Position numbers and translations under genes: made by a program | The notes under the pieces: model-generated | Databases searched by the model: none | The model's input: only the letters and a program-made list of their open reading frames with translations | What the model was told of the DNA's origin: nothing | From: a virus | IMG/VR virus record: IMGVR_UViG_3300048015_000019 | Span: 1-61,065 of that record | Direction: 5' to 3' (one strand) | DNA: 61,065 nucleotides | Shown here: positions 2,374-61,065 of the stretch, one piece after another | Layout: each line of letters starts with the position of its first letter | Position numbering within the stretch: the first letter of the stretch is position 1

Positions 2374-2916
2374 ATGGCAAAGCGCGGTGACCTGACCGAC
2401 AAGCAGCGGAAATTCGTGGAGACGTATCTCACGAACGGGAGGAATGCGTCAGCGGCCTATCGAGAGGCGTACAACACCACGACGTCAGCTCAGCGGGTTG
2501 GCGATGACGCATCAGAACTTCTGCGCCATCCCGGAATAATCCCGATAATTGAGGCGGCGGAGCAAAAAAAAGAAGAATCAACCCGCCGCGTGATCGAGCG
2601 CACCTCGATTACTGAGGCAGAAATCCTGTCCCGGCTGATCCACTTGGCACGAGCGGATGTGCGAGACTTGATGGACTGGACCAGTGGTCGGCCTGTCTTG
2701 AAAAACAGCGCTGAACTGACGACAGAACAAGCCTACGCGATCACGGAGATTGCTGAAACGCAGAACGGACTGCGGATCAAGCTGACCGACAAGCGCGCGG
2801 TGCTGATGGATATCGCGAAGCTGATGGGGCTGTTGGTTGAGAAGCAACAGCAGCTCGGCCCGGACGGCAAGCCGATCGATCCGCGGCAGGTGTTCACGGT
2901 GGTGGTGAAGGGATGA
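2374..2916 (+). CDS. terS: Terminase small subunit (Terminase_2-like)
   Basis: MAKRGDLTDKQRKFVETYLTNGRNASAAYREAY is the classic TerS N-terminus. Lies upstream of TerL. Confidence 0.85.
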   Translation: MAKRGDLTDKQRKFVETYLTNGRNASAAYREAYNTTTSAQRVGDDASELLRHPGIIPIIEAAEQKKEESTRRVIERTSITEAEILSRLIHLARADVRDLMDWTSGRPVLKNSAELTTEQAYAITEIAETQNGLRIKLTDKRAVLMDIAKLMGLLVEKQQQLGPDGKPIDPRQVFTVVVKG

Positions 2917-3419
2917 CCACAATCGCCTGGGACGGCCACTCACTGGCCTGCGACACCTGCTGCAGTAGCGGCGGGATGGTGTTTCGCGTGAACAAAATCC
3001 GCAGATGCCCAGATGGCCGGCTGATTGGCGGAGCCGGGGAGTCTGGCGCCGTGGAGGCTTTCATGGATTGGCTGCAAACGGGAAAGCCTGACGGGCGGCC
3101 AGAGTTTCAGGACCGCAGCGACGACAACGTGCACATGCTGGAGGTGCAGCTGGACGGCACCGTGTGGTGGCACGGTCGGTTCGCGCCGTTCCGTTTCTGC
3201 CAGGAGTTCATCGCGATTGGCAGCGGGCAGCATTTCGCCATGGCGGCGATGGCCATGGGAGCTGGTGCGAAGCGCGCGGTCGAGATCGCGTGCCGGTTCG
3301 ACGCTGGATCGGGTGAGCCGGTGGAGACGCTGCATTTTGTGGGGCCATCCGCGCAATCCTTGACCCAACCCCACCCCATCCCGCATGTTCCTGCGGCGCA
3401 CGGGCCATCAGCACCGTGA
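2913..3419 (+). CDS. HslV / proteasome beta-type Ntn peptidase-like protein
   Basis: Begins MTTIAWDG (Thr directly after Met, as in HslV TTIV). Also has VNKIRR...GRLIGGAGESGAVEAF and FIAIGSGQHFAMAAMAMGAGAKRAVEIACRFD, which parallel the HslV LIAIGSGGPYAQAAARAL block. Confidence 0.65.
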   Translation: MTTIAWDGHSLACDTCCSSGGMVFRVNKIRRCPDGRLIGGAGESGAVEAFMDWLQTGKPDGRPEFQDRSDDNVHMLEVQLDGTVWWHGRFAPFRFCQEFIAIGSGQHFAMAAMAMGAGAKRAVEIACRFDAGSGEPVETLHFVGPSAQSLTQPHPIPHVPAAHGPSAP

Positions 3420-3515
3420 CGACACCCGCCGCATCGCGCTCAGTCATCGCGCCTCACGGCAGCACCCCCACCAGCACCAGTATTCGCCGGCGTGTGCCGG
3501 CCTCCAGCGGGAGCG

Positions 3516-3755
3516 ATGACGATGAACGATGACGGCATGATGCGTCCGCGCAAGATGATGGCCGGCGCCGAGGATAGCGGGGATTTTGGCGTTGGCCCGA
3601 TCGGCCGGCCGCGGTTCGCCCCGATGATCAAGGACAGCGAGATGCTCGCCGACAAGGACCGCGCGGCCCCGCCCGCGTTCGGCGGATCGGGCGGCTCGAT
3701 GGCCAGCACGCCGGCTGCCGACCACGGTCCGCATTTTAGCCGCCGCGGCGTCTGA
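3516..3755 (+). CDS. Small hypothetical protein (79 aa, disordered-looking)
   Basis: GGGAG RBS before the ATG. Strong G/C preference at third codon positions. Confidence 0.5.
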   Translation: MTMNDDGMMRPRKMMAGAEDSGDFGVGPIGRPRFAPMIKDSEMLADKDRAAPPAFGGSGGSMASTPAADHGPHFSRRGV

Positions 3756-3934
3756 TGATGCACGGCCACCCACCTCTGCCGGTGCGTCGCATGCCCGTTG
3801 GAGCGCCGCCTGTGGCGTCTCGGCAGCTGCTGCCGCCACCGGCGCCGGAAGCCGTTTCATTCGCGCCACAGCACGTCCTGGGTGGCCCGGGGTGGCGGGA
3901 CAAGCTGGCGGCCGACGGCAAGAAGGGGGCGTAA
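3755..3934 (+). CDS. Small hypothetical Pro-rich protein (59 aa, below the ORF-track cutoff)
   Basis: Found by hand. TGATG overlap with the previous stop. MMHGHPPLPVRR...DKLAADGKKGA. Ends 1 nt before the next ATG. Confidence 0.45.
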   Translation: MMHGHPPLPVRRMPVGAPPVASRQLLPPPAPEAVSFAPQHVLGGPGWRDKLAADGKKGA

Positions 3935-3935
3935 A

Positions 3936-4130
3936 ATGGGAAAGAGCACCACGCGACCGGTCGCACCGTTCACTCCGTCTGATCGCCAGTCGGTAACGGT
4001 GGACAAGATCAAGAACGGGTTCCTGATTACGCGCGACGGCGTGCGAAAGGGCGAGTATTTCTCCGAGCGCGAATACTCGCCGACCGACCCGCTGGCGCCG
4101 GCCAAACGCACAAGCGCGAAGGCGAAATGA
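3936..4130 (+). CDS. Small hypothetical protein (64 aa)
   Basis: AAGAAGGGGG RBS upstream of ATG 3936. The longer 3798 start would give an Arg/Cys-rich, implausible N-terminus. Confidence 0.55.
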   Translation: MGKSTTRPVAPFTPSDRQSVTVDKIKNGFLITRDGVRKGEYFSEREYSPTDPLAPAKRTSAKAK

Positions 4131-4315
4131 TGCCCATCACCACCGGCAACGAGCCCGAAACCCTCAGTGGCATGCGATCGCCGACCACGCCCGCGCCGCT
4201 GCCGAAGCCGTCACGCAAAATGGACGCCGGCAAGTCGCCAGCCAAGCATCCCGATCCGGCGCACAACACCACGAAGCACGCGCATCACGACGGGCGCCGC
4301 GCCGCGCATTACTGA
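4127..4315 (+). CDS. Small hypothetical Pro/His-rich protein (62 aa)
   Basis: ATGA overlap with the previous gene. Confidence 0.45.
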   Translation: MMPITTGNEPETLSGMRSPTTPAPLPKPSRKMDAGKSPAKHPDPAHNTTKHAHHDGRRAAHY

Positions 4316-4327
4316 GGGCCGCCGGCC

Positions 4328-5803
4328 ATGATGCCGGAATATGACCGGACCAATTCGCCGACTGTGAAAGAATTCATGTCGAGCGATGCGTTCATCCGGG
4401 GCCTAATGGGGCCGGTTGGCTCGGGCAAATCCTCTGGCTGTGTCTGGGAGATCATTCTCCGCGGCTTAAAGCAACGGCCTGGCCCAGACGGCGTGCGCAG
4501 GTCGAAATGGGTGGTCATCCGCAACACCTATTCCGAGCTCGCTGACACCACGATCAGGACGTTCCTGCAGTGGTTTCCGCCCTATCTGTTCGGCGATTGG
4601 CGCCCCAGCCTCAACAGCTACATCGTCCGCGGCTTGCGCGCCGCTGACGACGAGCCTGCGGCCGAGATCGAGATCATGTTCCGCGCGCTGGATCGGCCGG
4701 ACCACGTCGCCAAACTGCTCTCGCTCGAAATCACCGGCGCCTGGATCAACGAAGCGCGCGAGGTGCCTTGGGCAATCGTCGAGGGCGTGCAGATGCGCGT
4801 CGGCCGGTATCCCGCAATTCGCGACGGCGGCGCGACCTGGTGCGGCGTGATCATGGACACGAACCCGCCAGATGTGGACAGCGACTGGTATCGGTTCTTC
4901 GAGCAATCGGACCACGGCGAGGCCGTCGAGAAGCTGGCCGAGGTCATTCCCGGTTTGACGGCTGAAGGGTTCGCGCGAATCTTCAAGCAGCCGAGCGGGT
5001 TGTCACCTGCGGCCGAGAACAAAGCCAACCTGTTACCGGGATATTACGAACGCATCGCGGTCGGAAAATCTCAAGAATGGGTCAAGGTCTACGTCCACGG
5101 CCAATATGGATTCACGATTGACGGCCTGCCGATATTTGGCGATGACTACGAGGATGGGTTTCACTGCAAGCCGTGTTTGGCCCGACCAGATGCGCCGATT
5201 TACCGGGGGTGGGATTTTGGCCTTACGCCGGCGTGCGTGTTTACTCAGATCCAGCCCAACGGCCAGTGGCGCGTGCTCGACGAGCTAACCTCGACCTCGA
5301 TGGGTATTGACCGGTTTTCGGACGATGTCATTGAATTCAGCAATCGCGCATATCCGCAGATGGATTTCATCGACATCGGCGATCCGGCGGGGATGCAACG
5401 GGCGCAGACTGACGAGCGAACGTGCTTCGAAATTCTTCACGCCAAGGGAATCTTGATCGAGCCTGCTTTGCAGGACCCTACAATTCGCTGGGAAAGCGTT
5501 AGGAAACCTTTACGGACTGTGATTTCAAAGGGCCAGCCACAATTTCTGATTGACCCGGCGTGCAGCGTGCTGCGAAAAGGATTCATGGGTGGATATCAAT
5601 TCCGCCGACTGAAGGTCTCCGGCGAGCAATACTCGCAGCAGGCGACCAAAAATCAGTATTCCCACGTTCATGATGCGTTGGGATACGTGGCTACCAGGCT
5701 GTTCGCGCCATCACTGCGCAGGCCGAAAACACCAGCACACGACGATAGCGAGAGCTATCAGGCGATCCAGGACAGCAGTCGGTCCAGAATCACGGGGTAC
5801 TGA
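4328..5803 (+). CDS. terL: Terminase large subunit
   Basis: Walker A GPVGSGKSSG, Walker B-like AWINEAREV, then a nuclease half. Size and position fit TerL. Confidence 0.88.
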   Translation: MMPEYDRTNSPTVKEFMSSDAFIRGLMGPVGSGKSSGCVWEIILRGLKQRPGPDGVRRSKWVVIRNTYSELADTTIRTFLQWFPPYLFGDWRPSLNSYIVRGLRAADDEPAAEIEIMFRALDRPDHVAKLLSLEITGAWINEAREVPWAIVEGVQMRVGRYPAIRDGGATWCGVIMDTNPPDVDSDWYRFFEQSDHGEAVEKLAEVIPGLTAEGFARIFKQPSGLSPAAENKANLLPGYYERIAVGKSQEWVKVYVHGQYGFTIDGLPIFGDDYEDGFHCKPCLARPDAPIYRGWDFGLTPACVFTQIQPNGQWRVLDELTSTSMGIDRFSDDVIEFSNRAYPQMDFIDIGDPAGMQRAQTDERTCFEILHAKGILIEPALQDPTIRWESVRKPLRTVISKGQPQFLIDPACSVLRKGFMGGYQFRRLKVSGEQYSQQATKNQYSHVHDALGYVATRLFAPSLRRPKTPAHDDSESYQAIQDSSRSRITGY

Positions 5804-5806
5804 CAT

Positions 5807-6217
5807 TTGGCAAAACTTACGTCTGAGGTTTCCCGCTGGACCAATCAGACCGGTGCGCTCGGTGTATCCGGCTCCGGCACGACGCTGTTGAGCGCGATCC
5901 ACATCGATGTTGCGGCCTACGACGCCCTGCCGCCGATCCTCCGCGAAGCCGTGGCGCGCAACGCCATCAAGCTGTCGGCCGAAAGCGTCCTAAAATTCTG
6001 GCGCAGCATCACCTTGCAAGCCGGCGGCGATGACGCCGAGGCCGCGCGCTACACGGCGACGAAAATCGACAAGCTCGAAGCGGGGGAAATCACCATGTTT
6101 GCAGGATGGCACCGCGGCGCGCACGGGTATGACCTGCCGCACGTTGCAGCTCGCGCAAAGATCTGCAGGCCGGACAGCCGGCGCACACGGATTATCGGTT
6201 GGGATATGGCCGCGTGA
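5807..6217 (+). CDS. Hypothetical protein between TerL and portal
   Basis: ORF with TTG start, coupled to the portal by a GTGA overlap. Confidence 0.5.
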   Translation: MAKLTSEVSRWTNQTGALGVSGSGTTLLSAIHIDVAAYDALPPILREAVARNAIKLSAESVLKFWRSITLQAGGDDAEAARYTATKIDKLEAGEITMFAGWHRGAHGYDLPHVAARAKICRPDSRRTRIIGWDMAA

Positions 6218-8508
6218 GTGGTTCCAGCGCCCTGGCAGCCCTTCCCGGCGCCGCGCGAACGTCGCAGCCGGCCACGTCCGGCCCGCAAGTCGAAATGCCG
6301 ACCGATGGCGATGGCCTGCTGGCCGAGGCTGAGTGGCAGGGGCGAGAGGGCGCGAACCGCGAGCTCGCCGACCAGCTGATGCGCTGGATCAAGATGCCGA
6401 ACATTGCCGAAGATCAGTCAATTCCCGAGGACACGTTGAACACGATCGCCAACCGTGTGAAGCAGGATTACGACCTCGATGAGGAAAGCCGCGCTGAGTG
6501 GAAATCGGCCTATGAGAAATGGCTCGACCAGGCGATGCAGATCGCCGAGGAAAAAAGCTACCCGTGGCCTGGCGCGTCGAATGTCCGCTATCCGCTGTTG
6601 ACGAATGCCGCGATCCAGTTCGCGGCACGCGCGTATCCGTCGATCGTGCGCGACCGCAATGTGGTCAAGGGCACCGTGATTGGCGATGACAAAGGCGAGC
6701 CGGTCATCGATCCGAACACCGGCCAGCAAGCGCAGATGCCAAGCCCTGACGGCCAGATGCAGCCAGTCTGGAAAGTTGCGCCGGGAGCCAAGGCAACGCG
6801 AGCCGACAACATCGGCCGGCACATGTCGTGGCAGCTGCTCGACGAGCAGGAGGAGTGGGAGCCGCAGACCGACCGCATGCTGATCGTGTTGCCGATCGTG
6901 GGCACCATGTTCCGCAAGAGCTATTTCGACCCGGGCATGCAGCGGAACATGTCGGAGACCGTGACCGCGCTGAACCTGTGCATCAACTACAAGGCGAAGT
7001 CGTTCGAGACCGCGCCGCGCGTGACCGAGATCATCGACTTGTACCCGCATGAGATTGAGGAGAAGATTCGCGCGGGCATCTTCATCGACCAGTTCTATGG
7101 GGAAAACTTTGACGCAGGCCAGGATCAGGAGGCCGTGGTCACATTCCTTGAACAGCATCGGCGGTGGGATTTGGACGGCGACGGCTACACGGAGCCTTAC
7201 ATCATCACCATCGCACGCGACTCCTGCAAGTTGGCGCGTATCCGGGCCGCCTATGACGAAGAGACGGTGTTCTTTTCTGCCGTCGATCACCGCATCCGCA
7301 AGATCGACCCGGTGAAATACTACACAAAATATCCGTTTATCCCGAATCCCATGAGCAACGTCTACGATGTCGGGTTTGGCCATTTGCTGAACCCGATCAA
7401 TGAGGCGATCAACACGACGCTGAACCAAATGTTCGATGCGGGCCACCTGGCGAACGCCGGCGGCGGTTTCATCGGGTCCGGGTTGTCGATGAACAGCGGA
7501 GCAGTGCGGTTTCAGATCGGCGAATACAAGGTGGTGAACGGCCTCGGCGGCAGCATCCGCGATTCGATTCTGCCGCTGCCGTTTCAGGGGCCCAACCCGG
7601 TGCTGTTCTCGCTGCTCCAGTTCCTTATGGAAGCCGGCAAGGAAATCGCCGCGGTGAAGGACGTGCTGTCGGGAGACCTGCCCGGCGACAACGTTTCGGC
7701 CGTGACCACGATGGCCGTGATTGAGCAAGGGCTCAAGGTTTTCACGGCAATTCACCAGCGGATCCATCGGTCGCTGAAATCCGAATTCAAGAAGCTGTTC
7801 CGGCTGAACCGCATCTATCTGCCGGTGCAGACCGGGTATCGCATGGGCGATGTCTGGCACGAGATCACGCAAGCCGACTATCAGGCGGGCGCGGGGATTG
7901 AGCCGGTCAGCGATCCGCGCATGATCACCGACATGCAGCGGTTGGGCCGGGCGCAGTTCCTGATGCAGTTCATGAACGACCCTTGGTTCAACGGGCGCGA
8001 GATCCGCCGGCGCATCCTGGACGCATCGCTGATCGACAATTCAGATGCGCTCATGGTCGAGCAGCCGCCGGCCGATCCCCAGGCCATGGCCGCGCAAGCC
8101 GACCTGAAACTGCGCGAGGCCGAGCTGCAGATCCGCGCCGCGCATGAGCAGGCGGATGTGCAGATCCGGCGCGGCAAGGACAAGGCGGACGAAATCCGCA
8201 TCCTCACCCAAGGCATCCTGAACCTTGCAAACGCGGCCAAGGCGGACGCGCAGGTCGATCAAGGATGGGTGGCCCACAACATCGCAATGCTAAAACTCCA
8301 GGTGGACGCACTCAATGCCGGATCGGATCAACCCGACGTCAACCCCGCGGCCATTGCAGGCCTCCCAGGCGCGCCTCAGCCCAACGCTGGCGGCGGCTTT
8401 GGATCTCCAGGAGGGGCAGTTTCAGGCGTGGCTCAATCATCCGGTCAGCCGCCTGTTCCAGCAGTTCCTGCGGGATTACCGGGACCAGGTGGCGCAGTCG
8501 GTGCTTGA
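6214..8508 (+). CDS. Portal protein
   Basis: About 765 codons immediately after TerL. GTG at 6214 overlaps the upstream stop (alternative start 6199). The C-terminal Gly/Pro/Ala tail is in a frame with depressed GC3 (see findings). Confidence 0.75.
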   Translation: MSGSSALAALPGAARTSQPATSGPQVEMPTDGDGLLAEAEWQGREGANRELADQLMRWIKMPNIAEDQSIPEDTLNTIANRVKQDYDLDEESRAEWKSAYEKWLDQAMQIAEEKSYPWPGASNVRYPLLTNAAIQFAARAYPSIVRDRNVVKGTVIGDDKGEPVIDPNTGQQAQMPSPDGQMQPVWKVAPGAKATRADNIGRHMSWQLLDEQEEWEPQTDRMLIVLPIVGTMFRKSYFDPGMQRNMSETVTALNLCINYKAKSFETAPRVTEIIDLYPHEIEEKIRAGIFIDQFYGENFDAGQDQEAVVTFLEQHRRWDLDGDGYTEPYIITIARDSCKLARIRAAYDEETVFFSAVDHRIRKIDPVKYYTKYPFIPNPMSNVYDVGFGHLLNPINEAINTTLNQMFDAGHLANAGGGFIGSGLSMNSGAVRFQIGEYKVVNGLGGSIRDSILPLPFQGPNPVLFSLLQFLMEAGKEIAAVKDVLSGDLPGDNVSAVTTMAVIEQGLKVFTAIHQRIHRSLKSEFKKLFRLNRIYLPVQTGYRMGDVWHEITQADYQAGAGIEPVSDPRMITDMQRLGRAQFLMQFMNDPWFNGREIRRRILDASLIDNSDALMVEQPPADPQAMAAQADLKLREAELQIRAAHEQADVQIRRGKDKADEIRILTQGILNLANAAKADAQVDQGWVAHNIAMLKLQVDALNAGSDQPDVNPAAIAGLPGAPQPNAGGGFGSPGGAVSGVAQSSGQPPVPAVPAGLPGPGGAVGA

Positions 8509-8665
8509 GGGGTGGCGCGCGGGCGGCAGCCTTGCCCACGAAAACGAAAATCGCGGCCGATGCGCGCTCGCCGATGAAATCGCGATGCTGTCATTCGAAA
8601 ACATCCGCAATTTCTACCTCAAGGCCGCTGTGGCCGAGGGATTCACACCGGAGACCAATCAATGA
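8315..8665 (+). CDS. Hypothetical head-module protein (start uncertain; overlaps the portal 3' end by 194 nt)
   Basis: High GC3 in this frame from about 8315. Globular-looking sequence LDLQEGQFQAWLNHPVSRLFQQFLRDYRDQV. ATGA-coupled to the GroES-like gene. Confidence 0.55.
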   Translation: MPDRINPTSTPRPLQASQARLSPTLAAALDLQEGQFQAWLNHPVSRLFQQFLRDYRDQVAQSVLEGWRAGGSLAHENENRGRCALADEIAMLSFENIRNFYLKAAVAEGFTPETNQ

Positions 8666-9093
8666 GAGACGGGCGTATCCTCAAGATCGGCAACACGCAG
8701 TGGCGTCCGGCGCCATTCACGGGCGCGAACACCAGCGGGTATACGCCGGTCGGCGACAAGGTGCTGATCCTGCCTGATGTGGCGGTGACCAAGACGGCCG
8801 GCGGCATCCTGCTCACCGATGAGAAGCAGGAGCAGCAGACCGCCAGCGCCATGACGGGCGTGCTGGTCGAGGCCGCGCCCGGCGCGTTTCTCTGGAACGA
8901 TGACCGTACGGCGCAATGGGAAGGCGCCCGGCCGCTGCCGGGTCAGCGCATCTACTTCGAGCGGTATGCCGGCCAGATCCTGCATGGCAAGGATGGCCAG
9001 ACCTATCGGCTGATGGATCAGCGTTGCATCGCCGGCATTGAGGTGGAACCGGCCGCCGACGCAGCGGAAGCACCGCGGCCAGCAGCCGCATAG
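8662..9093 (+). CDS. GroES/Cpn10-like co-chaperonin
   Basis: PVGDKVLILPDVAVTKTAGGILLTDEKQEQ...GVLVEAAPGA...GQRIYFERYAG...YRLMDQRCIAGIEV parallels GroES PLHDRVIVKR...KSAGGIVLT...GEVLAVG...GDIVIF...ILAIVE. Confidence 0.7.
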   Translation: MRDGRILKIGNTQWRPAPFTGANTSGYTPVGDKVLILPDVAVTKTAGGILLTDEKQEQQTASAMTGVLVEAAPGAFLWNDDRTAQWEGARPLPGQRIYFERYAGQILHGKDGQTYRLMDQRCIAGIEVEPAADAAEAPRPAAA

Positions 9094-9960: not shown

Positions 9961-10596
9961 ATGTCGATCATGAACCATCTGGCCGCCGAGAACCGTGACG
10001 CTGCCACCGAGGCGGCCGAACCGCCCAAGCCGAAACGGGCCTACAACCGCCGTGTGGCGCCCGTCGAGGGGCAGCTGACGATCACGCCGGGGCAGACCGA
10101 CATGCAGCCGAACCACTCGTCGGTGCCGCGCGGTCCGATCACGCCGACCAGGCCGCGCGTTGGAATGGGCGAATTCGTCCGATCGGCCGATGAGCCGGCG
10201 CCGATCCCGGTGGCAGCACCTCGCTCGCGCCCGCGCGATCTGAATCGCAAGCCGTTTGGCGCGCATGAGCAGAAGATGGCGTTCCCGGAGCGGCCCGGGT
10301 TCCATCGCCACATCTTCAACGACACGCCCGGCCGGATCGAGCGCGCGAAGGCTGCCGGCTACGAGCATGTGATGGACAGTCGCGGCAATCCGACCATGAT
10401 GGTGGTCGGCAAGGATGAGGCCGGAAAAGCGCTGAATGCGTACTTGATGGAAATGCCGCAAGAATGGTATGACGAGGACATGGCGGATCGGCAGAACGAG
10501 CAGGAACGCACCATGGCCGCAATCAAGCGCGGTTCGCATTCGGCGCCCGAGAATTCCTACGTGCCCCAGAAGGGCATTTCGCTCGAACGGCGCTGA
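9961..10596 (+). CDS. Hypothetical head-assembly protein
   Basis: ORF in the head module with good GC3. No motif recognised. Confidence 0.55.
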   Translation: MSIMNHLAAENRDAATEAAEPPKPKRAYNRRVAPVEGQLTITPGQTDMQPNHSSVPRGPITPTRPRVGMGEFVRSADEPAPIPVAAPRSRPRDLNRKPFGAHEQKMAFPERPGFHRHIFNDTPGRIERAKAAGYEHVMDSRGNPTMMVVGKDEAGKALNAYLMEMPQEWYDEDMADRQNEQERTMAAIKRGSHSAPENSYVPQKGISLERR

Positions 10597-10691
10597 TCCG
10601 CATCTGACTTTGAGGCCCCAGGCAAGACGGGAATCGCTACCGGCGCCATCATGGTGATGGCGATCGATCCCCTTGACCTGAGGGCTTTCTC

Positions 10692-11282
10692 ATGGCGAAC
10701 GCCAATACCCCGCGCGGGCTCATTCCCTATGCCGACACCTATGGCCGCAAATTCAACGGTTCGCTGAGCATCTACTATGTGCCCGCCGGCAATGCGACGG
10801 CGCTGTTCATGGGTGATCCGCTCCTCGCGATCTCGAACACTTCTGACGGCAACGGCATTCCGGCCATCGGCATCGCAGCCGCCGGCGGCGGCACGTACAT
10901 CACCGGCGCCTTCATGGGCATCGCGAACAACGCCGGCGCCATCCCGATCACGCTGCTGCAGAACCAGACCCCGTATCTCGCGGCCGGTCAGGCGGCGTAT
11001 GTCTACGTCGCCGATGACCCGAGCCTGCTGTTCGAGGTCCAGGAGAACGGCTCGATGGTATCGGGCGCATCGATGCGCAACGTCGATCTCGTCGCCGGGT
11101 CCGGCTCGACAGTGACCAGTTATTCCGGTTGGCAGCTGAACAGCTCGACGCTCGCCACGACGAACACGCTGCAGATGCGGATTAAGCAGCTGCTTCAGGA
11201 GGCCGACAACACCGTCGGCACCAACGCGAAGTGGCTCTGCAAGATCAATCTGCACTCTCTCAACAACCCTGCCGGCATCTGA
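10692..11282 (+). CDS. Putative capsid decoration/cement protein
   Basis: 196-aa beta-rich protein directly upstream of the major capsid gene. Call is by position only. Confidence 0.4.
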   Translation: MANANTPRGLIPYADTYGRKFNGSLSIYYVPAGNATALFMGDPLLAISNTSDGNGIPAIGIAAAGGGTYITGAFMGIANNAGAIPITLLQNQTPYLAAGQAAYVYVADDPSLLFEVQENGSMVSGASMRNVDLVAGSGSTVTSYSGWQLNSSTLATTNTLQMRIKQLLQEADNTVGTNAKWLCKINLHSLNNPAGI

Positions 11283-12289: not shown

Positions 12290-12361
12290 CCTATTATCGC
12301 GTCTCAGTCATGGACGGCGATCCCCACAGCCCGGCCTTGAGTGGCCCTGAAGGAGATCCCC

Positions 12362-13285
12362 ATGGCTCGCACTGCGCTCTATGCCCCCGCCCATCGTGTC
12401 GCTCCTCGTCTTGCGCTCGGCAACACCGGCGGCAATCCCGACCAGGCGCCCAGCATCGATTTCGGCGGCAGCGGCATCCAGGATCCGCGACTGCCCTACA
12501 ACACGGCCAACAGCGCGACCGGCGCGGCCGTGGTCGGCTGGATGGAGACCGGCGCCATCAAGGTGATCAGCGCGGTTCCGTCTGCTCTGGCGACCGCCAG
12601 CATCGCTGCGGCGGCACACACGACCAGCGGCACGGCCATGACGCTGGTGAGCAGCACCGGTTCCGGCATCACGGTTCTGGCGTCGGCGCTGATGGTGCTG
12701 CCCAGCCTCAACACCGTGCCGGCCGGCGCGCTCGCGATCGACGGCGCACCCGGGCTGGTGACGTTCGGCACGCACAATCGCACCTCGTTCTATGATCCGA
12801 CGAAGGCGCTGGCGCGCTCTGTGTCGATCACTGGCATTGCCGGCGGTGCTGGCGGAAACTTCCTGATCAAGGGCGCTGACATCTACGGCTATCCGATGTC
12901 TCAGCTTCTGACGGTGGCGGCCGGCGCGAACACGGTGAACACGACGAAGTGCTTCAAGTTTGTCTACAGCGTCACCCCGCAGTTCACAGATGGCACCGGC
13001 ACCTATTCGATCGGCCATGGTGACGTCTATGGGTTCGGCCTGGCGGCGGACTATTTCTCGGACGTGGACATTTACTGGGCCAACGTGATCCAGGCGGCGG
13101 CGACTTTTACGGCCGCGGTGACCACATCGCCGGCCACTACGACGACGGGCGATGTGCGCGGCACGTTCACGCCTGGGTCGGCATCAGACGGCACCAAGCG
13201 CCTCGATGTGTTCGTGGTGCCCAGTCTGAAGCGCATCGCCACCGCGCCGATGTCCGCCGGCCTGTTCGGCGTCACGCAGGTCTGA
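12362..13285 (+). CDS. Virion structural protein (hypothetical)
   Basis: AAGGAGAT RBS before ATG 12362. Ala/Thr/Gly-rich 307-aa protein. Confidence 0.6.
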   Translation: MARTALYAPAHRVAPRLALGNTGGNPDQAPSIDFGGSGIQDPRLPYNTANSATGAAVVGWMETGAIKVISAVPSALATASIAAAAHTTSGTAMTLVSSTGSGITVLASALMVLPSLNTVPAGALAIDGAPGLVTFGTHNRTSFYDPTKALARSVSITGIAGGAGGNFLIKGADIYGYPMSQLLTVAAGANTVNTTKCFKFVYSVTPQFTDGTGTYSIGHGDVYGFGLAADYFSDVDIYWANVIQAAATFTAAVTTSPATTTTGDVRGTFTPGSASDGTKRLDVFVVPSLKRIATAPMSAGLFGVTQV

Positions 13286-43018: not shown

Positions 43019-43221
43019 CCGACCCCACCTTCACCGACCGCTGCCCCTACAGCCCGTCAGGCTGGGCGGTGTGGCTCGGCACGCGCGGCGGGTCTCCGGT
43101 GTGCACGTGCCAGCCGATAACGGTGCCTGATGTCGGGGAAATGGTGCAAGCCGCCGAGCTAACCCCCGAGGATATCGCGTGGGCACGGGGTGAGATTGAG
43201 CGGATGAAGCAAAGCGGCTAG
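43015..43221 (+). CDS. Small hypothetical protein
   Basis: GTGA-coupled. Shares a palindromic CTAG stop with the convergent int gene. Confidence 0.45.
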   Translation: MTDPTFTDRCPYSPSGWAVWLGTRGGSPVCTCQPITVPDVGEMVQAAELTPEDIAWARGEIERMKQSG

Positions 43222-44441
43222 TCGGATAGCCCCGGTTTGCTTCGCCGCCTGCCGTCCAGCAATTCCACCGCCGGCCGAGCGCCGTGCAGCAGCAGATTGG
43301 CCCACTCTTGCGCGATGTCCCGCCGCCTGGCCGCGTAGAGCGTCCGGTTGTAGGCAGCGTGCACAGAATCGCGTGGCATGTGCGCCAGCATCGCCTCAAT
43401 GACATCCCGATCGGCCGGGTTGCGCTCGTTCATCACGCTGGAAAATGTCGCGCGCCACCCGTGCGCCGTTTGCCGGCCGGCATAACCTGCCCGGTTCATG
43501 AGGTAGCCCAGCGCGTTTTCGGACATGGGTGCGCGCGAATCCACCACGGACGGGAATACTAGATCAAGCCGGCCCGTGAGGGTGTGCGCGGCCTGCAGCA
43601 CCTCCACAGCTTGCCGGGATAGCGGCACGGCGTGATCCGGCGTGGAGGCGGCGCGCTCCTTGATGTGCTTCATGCGGGCGGCGGGGATGGTCCAGGCCAA
43701 CTGTCCAAGATCTCCGGATAGTTGAAACTCGCCCCACGTTGCCCCGCGCAGTTCCCCAGGCCGCACCGCAGTAAGCGCGAGCAGCCGCAGCGCCAGCCGC
43801 GTGACCGGGTGCGCCGGCACCGCCTCGGCGCGCTGTAGCGCCTCCCGTGCTTCGGCCAGTCCAGTGACAGCCGCCCGGTGCCCGCCACGCACAACGGGCT
43901 GTAGAGCCTTGCCTATGCCGGCCGCTGGGTTGTGGGTGAGTTGTGCCCCGCCCGCGATGGCGAAGACCCACACGGCGGCCAGGCGCTGCCGCAGGCGGTG
44001 TGCCAGCTCGACGGCGCCGCGTTGCTCCACCTTGGTCAGCGTGGCGACGATCATGGAAGCGGTGATCTTGTGCAGCGGCTTGTCGCCCAGATCCTTCATG
44101 ATCTCGCGGTCAAGGTTGGCCTTCACATCTGCGGCGTGGTGCGGTTTCCACAGCGGCGTCTGCCGAGCAAGCCATCGAGCCGTGACGTCGCGCAACGTCT
44201 CGGCCGGGACTTCAGGACCAAAATCGCGCAGTTTGTCCCGTGCGGCGCGGGCCTGAGCCAGTGACATGGCGGGATACCGGCCCAGCGTAGTCAGCCGCTC
44301 TTTGCCATCCTCAATCCGTCGCCAGCGCCAGGATTTTGCGCCGGTCGGGGCCACGCGGAGCTGCAAGCCGCCCTCGTCGGTGAGGATCAGGGCCTTGCCG
44401 TCTTTGACGCGAGCGTTGCGACATGCGGGGTCTGTGAGCAT
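43218..44441 (-). CDS. int: Tyrosine integrase, P4-type (DUF4102 N-terminus)
   Basis: MLTDPACRNARVKDGKALILTDEGGLQLRVAPTGAKSWRWRR...LGRYPAMSLAQAR, plus the catalytic C-terminal half (HGWRATFSS...LAHMPRD...AYNR). Alternative GTG start at 44462. Confidence 0.9.
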   Translation of the reverse strand: MLTDPACRNARVKDGKALILTDEGGLQLRVAPTGAKSWRWRRIEDGKERLTTLGRYPAMSLAQARAARDKLRDFGPEVPAETLRDVTARWLARQTPLWKPHHAADVKANLDREIMKDLGDKPLHKITASMIVATLTKVEQRGAVELAHRLRQRLAAVWVFAIAGGAQLTHNPAAGIGKALQPVVRGGHRAAVTGLAEAREALQRAEAVPAHPVTRLALRLLALTAVRPGELRGATWGEFQLSGDLGQLAWTIPAARMKHIKERAASTPDHAVPLSRQAVEVLQAAHTLTGRLDLVFPSVVDSRAPMSENALGYLMNRAGYAGRQTAHGWRATFSSVMNERNPADRDVIEAMLAHMPRDSVHAAYNRTLYAARRRDIAQEWANLLLHGARPAVELLDGRRRSKPGLSD

Positions 44442-44455
44442 TCCAAAGCCTCGAC

Positions 44456-44515
44456 GTGACACGGAAGGGCGGTGTCACGTCACGTGTCCGTCCACCTTCG
44501 GCGCTGCCGTGACAC
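44456..44515. repeat. GTGACAC / GTGTCAC repeats (candidate integrase arm-type sites)
   Basis: GTGACAC at 44456-44462 and 44509-44515. Inverted GTGTCAC at 44472-44478. Confidence 0.4.
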
Positions 44516-60896: not shown

Positions 60897-61065
60897 ATGA
60901 ACTCCGGCACCGCTTTACAAAACACGATGCGCTTGGCACTTGGTAAGGTTCGCCATGCTCGACTGTTCCGGAACAACAGAGGGGTGTTCTGGGCCGGCAA
61001 GGTGATCGCGAAAACCGGCACTACCGTGACGCTCGAGCACCCGCGTCGGGTCGAATGTGGGCTTG
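60897..61065 (+). CDS. VRR-NUC nuclease, 5' part (continues at base 128 after circular closure)
   Basis: ATG at 60897 (MNSGTALQNTMRLALGKVRHARLF...) is in frame with window frame 1 across the repeat. Confidence 0.8.
   Translation, partial: MNSGTALQNTMRLALGKVRHARLFRNNRGVFWAGKVIAKTGTTVTLEHPRRVECGL
60939..61065. repeat. Terminal direct repeat, right copy (identical to 1-127)
   Basis: Base-by-base comparison of both ends shows 127/127 identity. Confidence 0.97.

Follow-up and report, generated by a model that had tools for sequence, protein, structure and literature searches.

The 61,065-nucleotide stretch of viral DNA analysed here (the window; IMG/VR virus record IMGVR_UViG_3300048015_000019, positions 1 to 61,065) is the complete genome of a temperate tailed phage, and the gene under study, located between the terminase genes terS and terL, encodes a genuine homologue of HslV and the proteasome β subunits. 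The protein is a new member of the known PPH family and does not represent a new kind of element. The strongly conserved catalytic set and the fold match, together with a ratio of nonsynonymous to synonymous substitution rates (dN/dS) of 0.165, identify it as a catalytically intact N-terminal nucleophile (Ntn) hydrolase of the proteasome/HslV type that is kept under purifying selection. As to its role, we put the chances at about even that PPH is an accessory Thr-peptidase that acts autonomously, is made along with the packaging proteins and is not the prohead maturation protease.

Fold and family of the peptidase

The gene encodes a product of 168 aa, which begins with MTTIAWDG as read directly from the sequence:

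2913..3419, + strand: PPH gene, HslV/proteasome-β-like Ntn hydrolase; 168 codons and the stop (open reading frame (ORF), phrog_1040, hhalign, AlphaFold2 model).

The relationship with HslV needs profiles or structure to be seen, since a single-sequence search of the PDB with PPH returned nothing meaningful. In PHROGs, the product matched the entry “peptidase HslV family” (phrog_1040, 7.4e-34). When 105 homologues were combined into a profile, this aligned with E. coli HslV in hhalign with a probability of 96.6% and an E value of 6e-10, and the blocks that an earlier note on this DNA, made from the letters alone, had claimed to parallel HslV fell opposite each other: Thr2 paired with Thr1, Lys28 of the VNKIRR block with Lys33, and IAIGSG with the IAIGSG of HslV that contains Ser124. 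The AlphaFold2 model built on the same alignment of 105 homologues had a mean predicted local distance difference test score (pLDDT) of 90.7 and a predicted TM score (pTM) of 0.81. Its top PDB matches in Foldseek, a check which the earlier note had proposed, were HslV (3ty6, 6e-9, TM about 0.65) and BPH (5ovs, 1e-8), i.e. a peptidase Ntn fold, with 20S β subunits also among the best; many phage proteins were matched in the viral structure library too. By these three lines of evidence, the proposal of an HslV/proteasome-β-like Ntn peptidase with an exposed Thr was upheld. The Pfam Proteasome family (PF00227) stayed below threshold (13.9 bits against a cut-off of 22.4), no NCBIfam model, the HslV models included, matched the protein, and PADLOC gave no match.

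In the model, helices were found at residues 44-56 (H1), 106-114 (H3) and 119-129 (H4), and a 4-residue turn at 65-68 took the place of H2, where hhalign left a 16-residue gap in PPH opposite HslV H2. The β-sandwich core with H1, H3 and H4 and without H2 is the architecture of the PPH family, which was described bioinformatically by Fuchs et al. 2021 (PMC8665760) as proteins of about 140 residues that belong to group I with HslV and BPH, have no propeptide and lack H2, a trait common only to RPC. The window protein resembles the members of that description in its core of about 140-150 residues, the Thr after Met, the missing propeptide, the catalytic triad with the oxyanion Gly and the GSG motif, and the absence of H2. 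It was found in a tailed-phage genome and its closest cellular relatives are alphaproteobacterial, in keeping with a family encoded by tailed phages of Proteobacteria or by their hosts. The assignment rests on these structural features and on membership of phrog_1040, which is shared with phage proteins annotated “peptidase HslV family”.

Compared with HslV (ClpQ), PPH shares the fold, the N-terminal TT start and the catalytic residues in the alignment; unlike HslV, it is about 30 residues shorter, H2 is deleted, the HslU pocket is not conserved and no hslU lies next to it. Of the properties of HslV proper, it therefore has the Ntn fold with the N-terminal Thr and lacks the matches to curated models, the adjacent hslU and the docking pocket. 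BPH (5ovs, 5ovt, 5ovu), the second-best structural match, belongs to the group I proteasome-like proteins; no ATPase partner is known for it, and it offers a precedent for a stand-alone ring (PMC8665760). It differs in its length of about 185 residues, its H2 and its long acidic pore loop (PMC8665760); PPH has neither H2 nor such a loop.

The earlier note had considered such a peptidase not to be standard phage equipment. This did not hold, since the family is already published (PMC8665760) and annotated in PHROGs and RefSeq: it was annotated in 94 phage records, which include Xp10 50L, phiM5 gp03, Phapecoctavirus and Caulobacter jumbo phages, and 1.84 billion cluster representatives, searched with a profile, yielded 9,924 representatives of 50%-identity clusters at E<=1e-10. 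The closest relative was the metagenomic protein P0001, whose core is 91% identical, and everything else found was at most 54% identical.

Catalytic residues and selection

Conservation was read from two sets, the query with its 120 best database homologues (n=121) and 141 further 50%-identity representatives from an exhaustive search. The counts below are given in that order, and the counterparts in HslV were taken from hhalign:

2916..2918, + strand: Thr2 codon, predicted catalytic N-terminal nucleophile (Thr1 after Met removal), pairing with HslV Thr1; 121/121, 137/141.
2952..2954, + strand: Asp14 codon, equivalent of proteasome/HslV Asp17; 121/121, 139/141.
2994..2996, + strand: Lys28 codon, equivalent of Lys33, aligned with HslV Lys33; 121/121, 141/141.
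3036..3038, + strand: Gly42 codon, oxyanion-hole Gly (HslV Gly48, proteasome Gly47); 113/121, 139/141.
3219..3227, + strand: Gly103-Ser104-Gly105 codons, HslV GSG motif (Ser124; proteasome Ser129); each 121/121, and 141, 134 and 141 of 141.
3300..3311, + strand: Asp130-x-x-Ser133 codons, conserved D-x-x-S/T motif; Asp 114/121 and Ser/Thr 117/121, Asp 136/141.

The last of these motifs we take to resemble Asp166/Ser169 of the proteasome. A loss of Thr1 or Lys across homologues, which the earlier note had named as the finding that would count against it, was not seen, and both residues were kept almost throughout the two sets. In the set of 121, M1 was invariant and G42, W53, P63, G82, G116 and D130 were at least 90% conserved; in the 141 further representatives, conservation of these residues and of the catalytic ones was 95-100%. 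The MTT start was present in 115/120 close homologues and in 121/141 of the further representatives, and position 1 of the profile corresponded to residue 1 of the protein. The dN/dS value was obtained by comparison with L083, the locus of a 91%-identical relative.

Thr is a permissive second residue for Met removal. Host methionine aminopeptidase would remove Met1 and expose Thr2 as the nucleophile, and PPH would then hydrolyse peptide bonds by the proteasome-type mechanism.

Position in the packaging operon and the C-terminal tail

The overlap between the PPH start and the terS stop sits in the late operon, of which the following features concern PPH:

2374..2916, + strand: terS, small terminase, upstream gene of the PPH operon (Pfam Terminase_2 1.7e-18, phrog_51 6.8e-20).
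2913..2916, + strand: ATGA overlap of the PPH start codon and the terS stop codon, translational coupling (sequence read directly).
3345..3416, + strand: Pro-rich C-terminal tail of PPH, 24 residues (145-168), non-conserved and disordered (pLDDT 56-73; absent from homologues).
4328..5803, + strand: terL, large terminase, same operon as PPH (phrog_2 7.2e-21; Walker A GPVGSGKS).

The ATG of PPH (2913-2915) overlaps the TGA of terS (2914-2916). The reading frame 2913-3419 with its MTTIAWDG start, the ATGA coupling to terS and the location between terS and terL, all reported in the earlier note, were confirmed from the sequence and the family matches. A consensus scan revealed neither a promoter-like site nor a convincing terminator splitting terS, PPH and terL, and the three small ORFs at 3492-4315 between PPH and terL had no match in Pfam, PHROGs, PADLOC or NCBIfam. 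Together with the 24-residue unconserved tail, this terS-terL site with its start/stop overlap distinguishes the window protein from other PPH proteins.

The conserved PPH domain comprises residues 1-144 only. The median length of the homologues was about 146-147 aa, and residues 145-168 had no counterpart in them. At the DNA level, homology to L083 ended at about 3343 and resumed at 3359, which corresponds to L083 11619, and at this junction an additional cassette of 1.2 kb is present in L083, with four genes on the reverse strand, one of them for a YdaS-like helix-turn-helix protein. Because homology breaks at about 3343/3359 and the tail is absent from homologues, the tail is best explained as read-through past an indel junction and not as a functional extension. 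On the other side of the gene, L083 contains a 75-aa ORF between terS and PPH that is missing from the window, so that between the two genomes PPH is kept while both flanks vary by indels. The whole terS-terL interval (window 2916-4328, L083 9770-12200) appeared as an indel hot spot.

A recurrent C-terminal extension domain was sought in the long variants of the family (185-258 aa); their extensions were heterogeneous, mostly of low complexity and mutually unrelated. The C-terminal 50-70 residues of P0130, P0200, P0039 and P0191 were unrelated extensions, several of them Cys-rich and zinc-ribbon-like, and the C-terminal extension of phAPEC8 gp175 (L128 5001-5693) was acidic.

Neighbours of PPH genes in phages and bacteria

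The neighbourhoods of 80 viral-contig loci with PPH relatives were compared, with PPH placed by a hidden Markov model (HMM) and ORFs called heuristically. Dereplication at 80% PPH identity left 69 loci, which with the window gave n=70, and the neighbours within ±4 genes were clustered. No neighbour was conserved across the 70 dereplicated loci, and no AAA+ unfoldase was recurrent among the neighbours. The recurrent neighbours were terL (30/70), terS, three portal families, scaffold, major capsid protein (MCP), a head-morphogenesis protein and an adaptor.

The arrangements around PPH were diverse, and those with head or packaging genes alone numbered at least five. The order terL-PPH-x-portal (x, an intervening gene) was found in L030, L044, L055 and L040, and terL-PPH-portal directly in phiM5. 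P0002, a PPH protein of 54% identity, comes from a phage whose portal is homologous to that of the window and whose MCP is of the window's family; there PPH lies between terL and portal. In L037 the order was portal-PPH-head morphogenesis-x-scaffold-MCP, in L006 head morphogenesis-x-PPH-scaffold-MCP, and in L007 and L009 scaffold-MCP-x-adaptor-PPH. L050 and L071 showed PPH-x-terS-terL, and L068 had terS and terL 3 and 4 genes downstream of PPH. Neighbours outside the head genes included DNA polymerase (L035, L070), primase (L043), ribonucleotide reductase (L074) and SbcC (L078). Among the isolated phages, PPH of Xp10 (50L) is located in the early region near the transcription inhibitor p7, that of the T7-like phage Cota between DNA ligase and RNA polymerase, and that of phAPEC8 among the auxiliary genes PhoH, lysozyme and methyltransferase. 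The survey of terS/terL synteny suggested in the earlier note was thus fruitful in part: terL was enriched near PPH, as quantified below, and the position was not fixed, with early, DNA-metabolism and auxiliary sites used as well.

Two contigs carried more than one PPH-like gene. L080, a 227-kb IMG/VR jumbo-phage contig, contains tandem PPH-like ORFs at 10001-10543 and 10559-11209, the second of which is divergent (HMM E 5e-15), and the two could form a hetero-oligomeric pair. L011 and L021 are two PPH genes of the same 42-kb contig (IMGVR_UViG_3300047469_000099), separated by about 37 kb and with slightly different HMM scores; either the phage has two copies or the assembly could be chimeric or concatemeric.

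Candidates for a dedicated partner were considered and rejected. An upstream gene on the same strand ended within 10 nt of the PPH start in 47/69 loci; a small partner overlapping the PPH start was sought there, and the 21 small upstream ORFs at most 10 nt away were mutually unrelated except for one cluster of three. The gene of about 150 aa that follows PPH in the order terL-PPH-x-portal was dismissed since in YL1 it stays beside the portal and PPH is elsewhere.

Cellular copies were scanned with one genome per species, giving 37 loci. The 23 closest, at 43-51% identity, came from Acetobacteraceae/Rhodospirillales (Roseomonas, Falsiroseomonas, Muricoccus and related metagenome-assembled genomes), and no homologues of the window packaging genes were present within ±10 kb of these 23 loci. 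In L100 the gene order was amidase, pyrB, PPH, TctC, pyrC-like amidohydrolase, plsY and dprA. The flanking genes of this block recurred together in L096, L100 and L101, and a pyrB homologue was found near PPH (about 10001-10450) in L096, L097, L100, L101 and L102. P0006 and P0007 (42-49% identity) were also in ordinary bacterial contexts. Since these chromosomal copies lie among housekeeping genes, PPH must function, or at least persist, without a phage partner or a capsid substrate. The only chromosomal exceptions listed for the family were from Pseudoalteromonas and Mesorhizobium (PMC8665760), and the Acetobacteraceae/Rhodospirillales copies fall outside them. Stand-alone chromosomal homologues were seen also in L094, L087, L125 and L127.

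A proposed role as an autonomous accessory peptidase

According to the reading to which we give about an even chance, PPH would act in the cytoplasm of the infected cell as an autonomous accessory peptidase and would depend neither on a phage partner nor on canonical HslU docking. It probably forms rings like those of HslV and BPH, because H3 and H4, the makers of the ring-to-ring contacts, are retained. Its substrates may be peptides or proteins of the host, or a factor in defence or regulation, and it would have come to lie between terS and terL by insertion into the packaging module, at a mosaic hot spot.

Several points weigh against this reading. At least one head or packaging neighbour was present in 40/70 loci, and five more had terL, a virion-structural protein or a portal-like adaptor nearby. 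As short viral contigs are recognised by hallmark genes, which biases them to head and packaging neighbourhoods, the count was repeated on contigs of at least 30 kb; there terL was within ±4 genes of PPH in 13/34, compared with about 15% expected (binomial p about 1e-3, a value not corrected for shared ancestry). This roughly 2.5-fold proximity could reflect a functional link to morphogenesis. The hosts can be expected to encode HslU and other unfoldases, with which PPH could still interact in a non-canonical manner. A literature search for experiments on phage HslV-like or PPH proteins returned only the 2021 bioinformatic description and mentions in genome annotations. To our knowledge, BPH and Anbu, which have no known ATPase partner, are without a demonstrated physiological substrate, so that “autonomous peptidase” is an extrapolation.

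Other possible roles

An unlikely alternative is a connectase-like processing enzyme or transpeptidase, monomeric or of low order, that cleaves or ligates one specific target, be it a regulator of the host, a protein of a defence system or one of the phage, and does not carry out bulk protein degradation. Connectase is itself a compact, helix-lacking homologue and a monomeric, sequence-specific ligase (PMC8665760), PPH is without H2, and the family-specific invariant residues W53, P63, G82 and G116 could form a specificity site. However, connectase is marked by the absence of the H1/H2 pair and by a two-helix S3/S4 insertion (PMC8665760), whereas PPH keeps H1, H3 and H4 and its model has no insertion between the early strands, over the active site. 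No conserved neighbour suggested a dedicated substrate, and the lack of a PADLOC match also speaks against such a role.

A non-canonical morphogenetic protease, made together with the terminase, which processes or clears scaffold, portal, ejection proteins or terminase where a phage has no canonical prohead protease, is distinctly improbable in our view. Within the packaging operon, the PPH start codon shares bases with the stop of terS, PPH is enriched by terL in the long contigs, and it lies inside the head module in L037 and L006 and in the terL-PPH-portal type of arrangement in phiM5, L030, L044 and L055. The window itself has no recognisable prohead protease, as the earlier note had stated together with the lack of an HslU or other AAA+ unfoldase. 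Both statements agreed with our survey: the genuine Walker-A ORFs of the genome were limited to terL, the SF2 helicase and a helicase-type protein with an AAA_25 match, and there was no HslU-, ClpX- or Lon-type unfoldase, and searches of Pfam, PHROGs and NCBIfam matched no protease family among the genes from portal to MCP or among the other large ORFs. A protease hidden among p282, p211 and p196 was also considered, and Pfam, PHROGs, NCBIfam and PDB sequence searches gave none.

The make-up of the head module weakens the argument from a missing protease. The module comprises portal, a GroES-like protein, p282 (282 aa), p211, p196 and a 302-aa MCP, whose Phage_capsid_4 match covers residues 31-297; a long delta domain is missing from the MCP N-terminus. 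By its coiled coils p282 resembles a scaffold, and p196 has the look of a β-rich decoration protein. Scaffold-using assembly of the P22 and T7 type needs no prohead protease. With no delta domain and a separate scaffold-like protein, the missing protease is not an anomaly for PPH to fill, and by this gene content the phage is a scaffold-using podovirus-type phage that needs no prohead protease.

The distribution of the family argues further against a morphogenetic protease. In Xp10, PPH is early and the canonical head maturation protease 8R is present in its standard slot; Cota, phAPEC8, L035, L070, L043, L074 and L078 place PPH beside the DNA-metabolism or auxiliary genes named above. L132 (contig IMGVR_UViG_3300043777_000022) has homologues of the same head genes (terS 40%, terL 55%, portal 50%, GroES 39%, scaffold 32%, p211 48%, p196 46%), but the 17.8 kb retrieved around this packaging and head region contained no PPH, and the terS-terL spacing of L132 is 73 bp; three further terL relatives also had no PPH nearby. 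Stand-alone chromosomal homologues of 43-51% identity have no capsid genes in their vicinity. In the record of phiM5, portal, scaffold and MCP are marked as detected in the virion proteome, and the peptidase is not so marked. PPH can occupy the slot of canonical prohead proteases (HK97-type, Xp10 8R), between portal or head morphogenesis and scaffold or MCP, as in L006 and L037; unlike them, it has an unrelated fold and catalytic type, a position that is not conserved in the head module, co-occurrence with another head protease and close homologues outside phages. The suggestion of a new type of maturation protease is thus disfavoured by the co-occurrence with 8R, the variable position, the absence from L132 and the chromosomal copies. 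We likewise give little chance to a narrower form of it, in which PPH in the podovirus-type lineage is a late, ATPase-independent protease with a packaging or head role (scaffold clearing, ejection or portal processing), although such a role would explain the terL/portal adjacency of about 2.5-fold and the fact that moves of the gene stay within the packaging module.

It is also improbable that PPH rings dock the HslU hexamer of the host, or assemble jointly with its HslV, and so redirect ATP-dependent degradation to substrates of the phage's choosing. HslV is the closest solved fold with a catalytic site identical in kind, no unfoldase is encoded by the phage, and HslV alone is a poor protease that is activated by HslU (PMC6429459). 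In HslV, the C-terminus of HslU is accommodated by Phe54 and Phe57 (H1), Ala79 and Lys80 (H2) and Gln114 (PMC6429459, citing the 1G3I structure). A79 and K80 fall in the H2 that is deleted from PPH in the hhalign alignment, the residues opposite F54 and Q114 vary within the PPH family, and the counterpart of F57 is a generic hydrophobic position. With H2 deleted and the pocket positions not conserved, canonical docking of HslU is unlikely, and the NCBIfam HslV models are unmatched. The idea in the earlier note that the enzyme borrows host HslU was therefore weakened by the loss of H2 and the variable pocket, and its premise that the genome has no HslU of its own stood.

That PPH is a mere passenger of a mosaic hot spot, decaying or without function, is hardly credible: the flanks are indel-rich and the junction adds 24 unconserved C-terminal residues, but dN/dS against L083 is low, the catalytic residues are intact, the core is 91% identical to P0001 and the model is confident.

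Other genes of the phage

The window begins and ends with the same 127 bp (1-127 and 60939-61065), which marks a circular assembly of about 60.9 kb. An integrase gene was found at 43218-44462, and the genome also encodes a RecE-like exonuclease, an SF2 helicase, methyltransferases, and tail, head-closure and DNA-ejection proteins. The portal gene is at 6199-8508 (phrog_1216 9e-16). Directly 3' of it, a gene for a GroES-like co-chaperonin (8662-9093, + strand; phrog_3188 5e-11) is kept as a Cpn10 gene in L083 and has the 39%-identical homologue in L132. Between terL and portal lies a DUF6525-family gene (5807-6217, + strand), whose Pfam family was seen in the L083 counterpart (1e-78); other lineages, including YL1, have an unrelated, analogous gene of about 140-155 aa just before the portal. 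The genes for p211, p196 and p314 (9961-11282 and 12341-13285, + strand) gave no informative family or PDB match, and p196 matched only phrog_37556, of unknown function.

Significance

The catalytic machinery of PPH is under strong constraint across thousands of lineages. The survey narrows the possibilities for what it does, as there is no conserved partner, the HslU docking site is gone, copies exist on chromosomes, and the genes are enriched at the terminase without being confined to it. If PPH did have a packaging or head role, it would be the first viral homologue of the proteasome with an assigned function and would define a new class of morphogenetic proteases.

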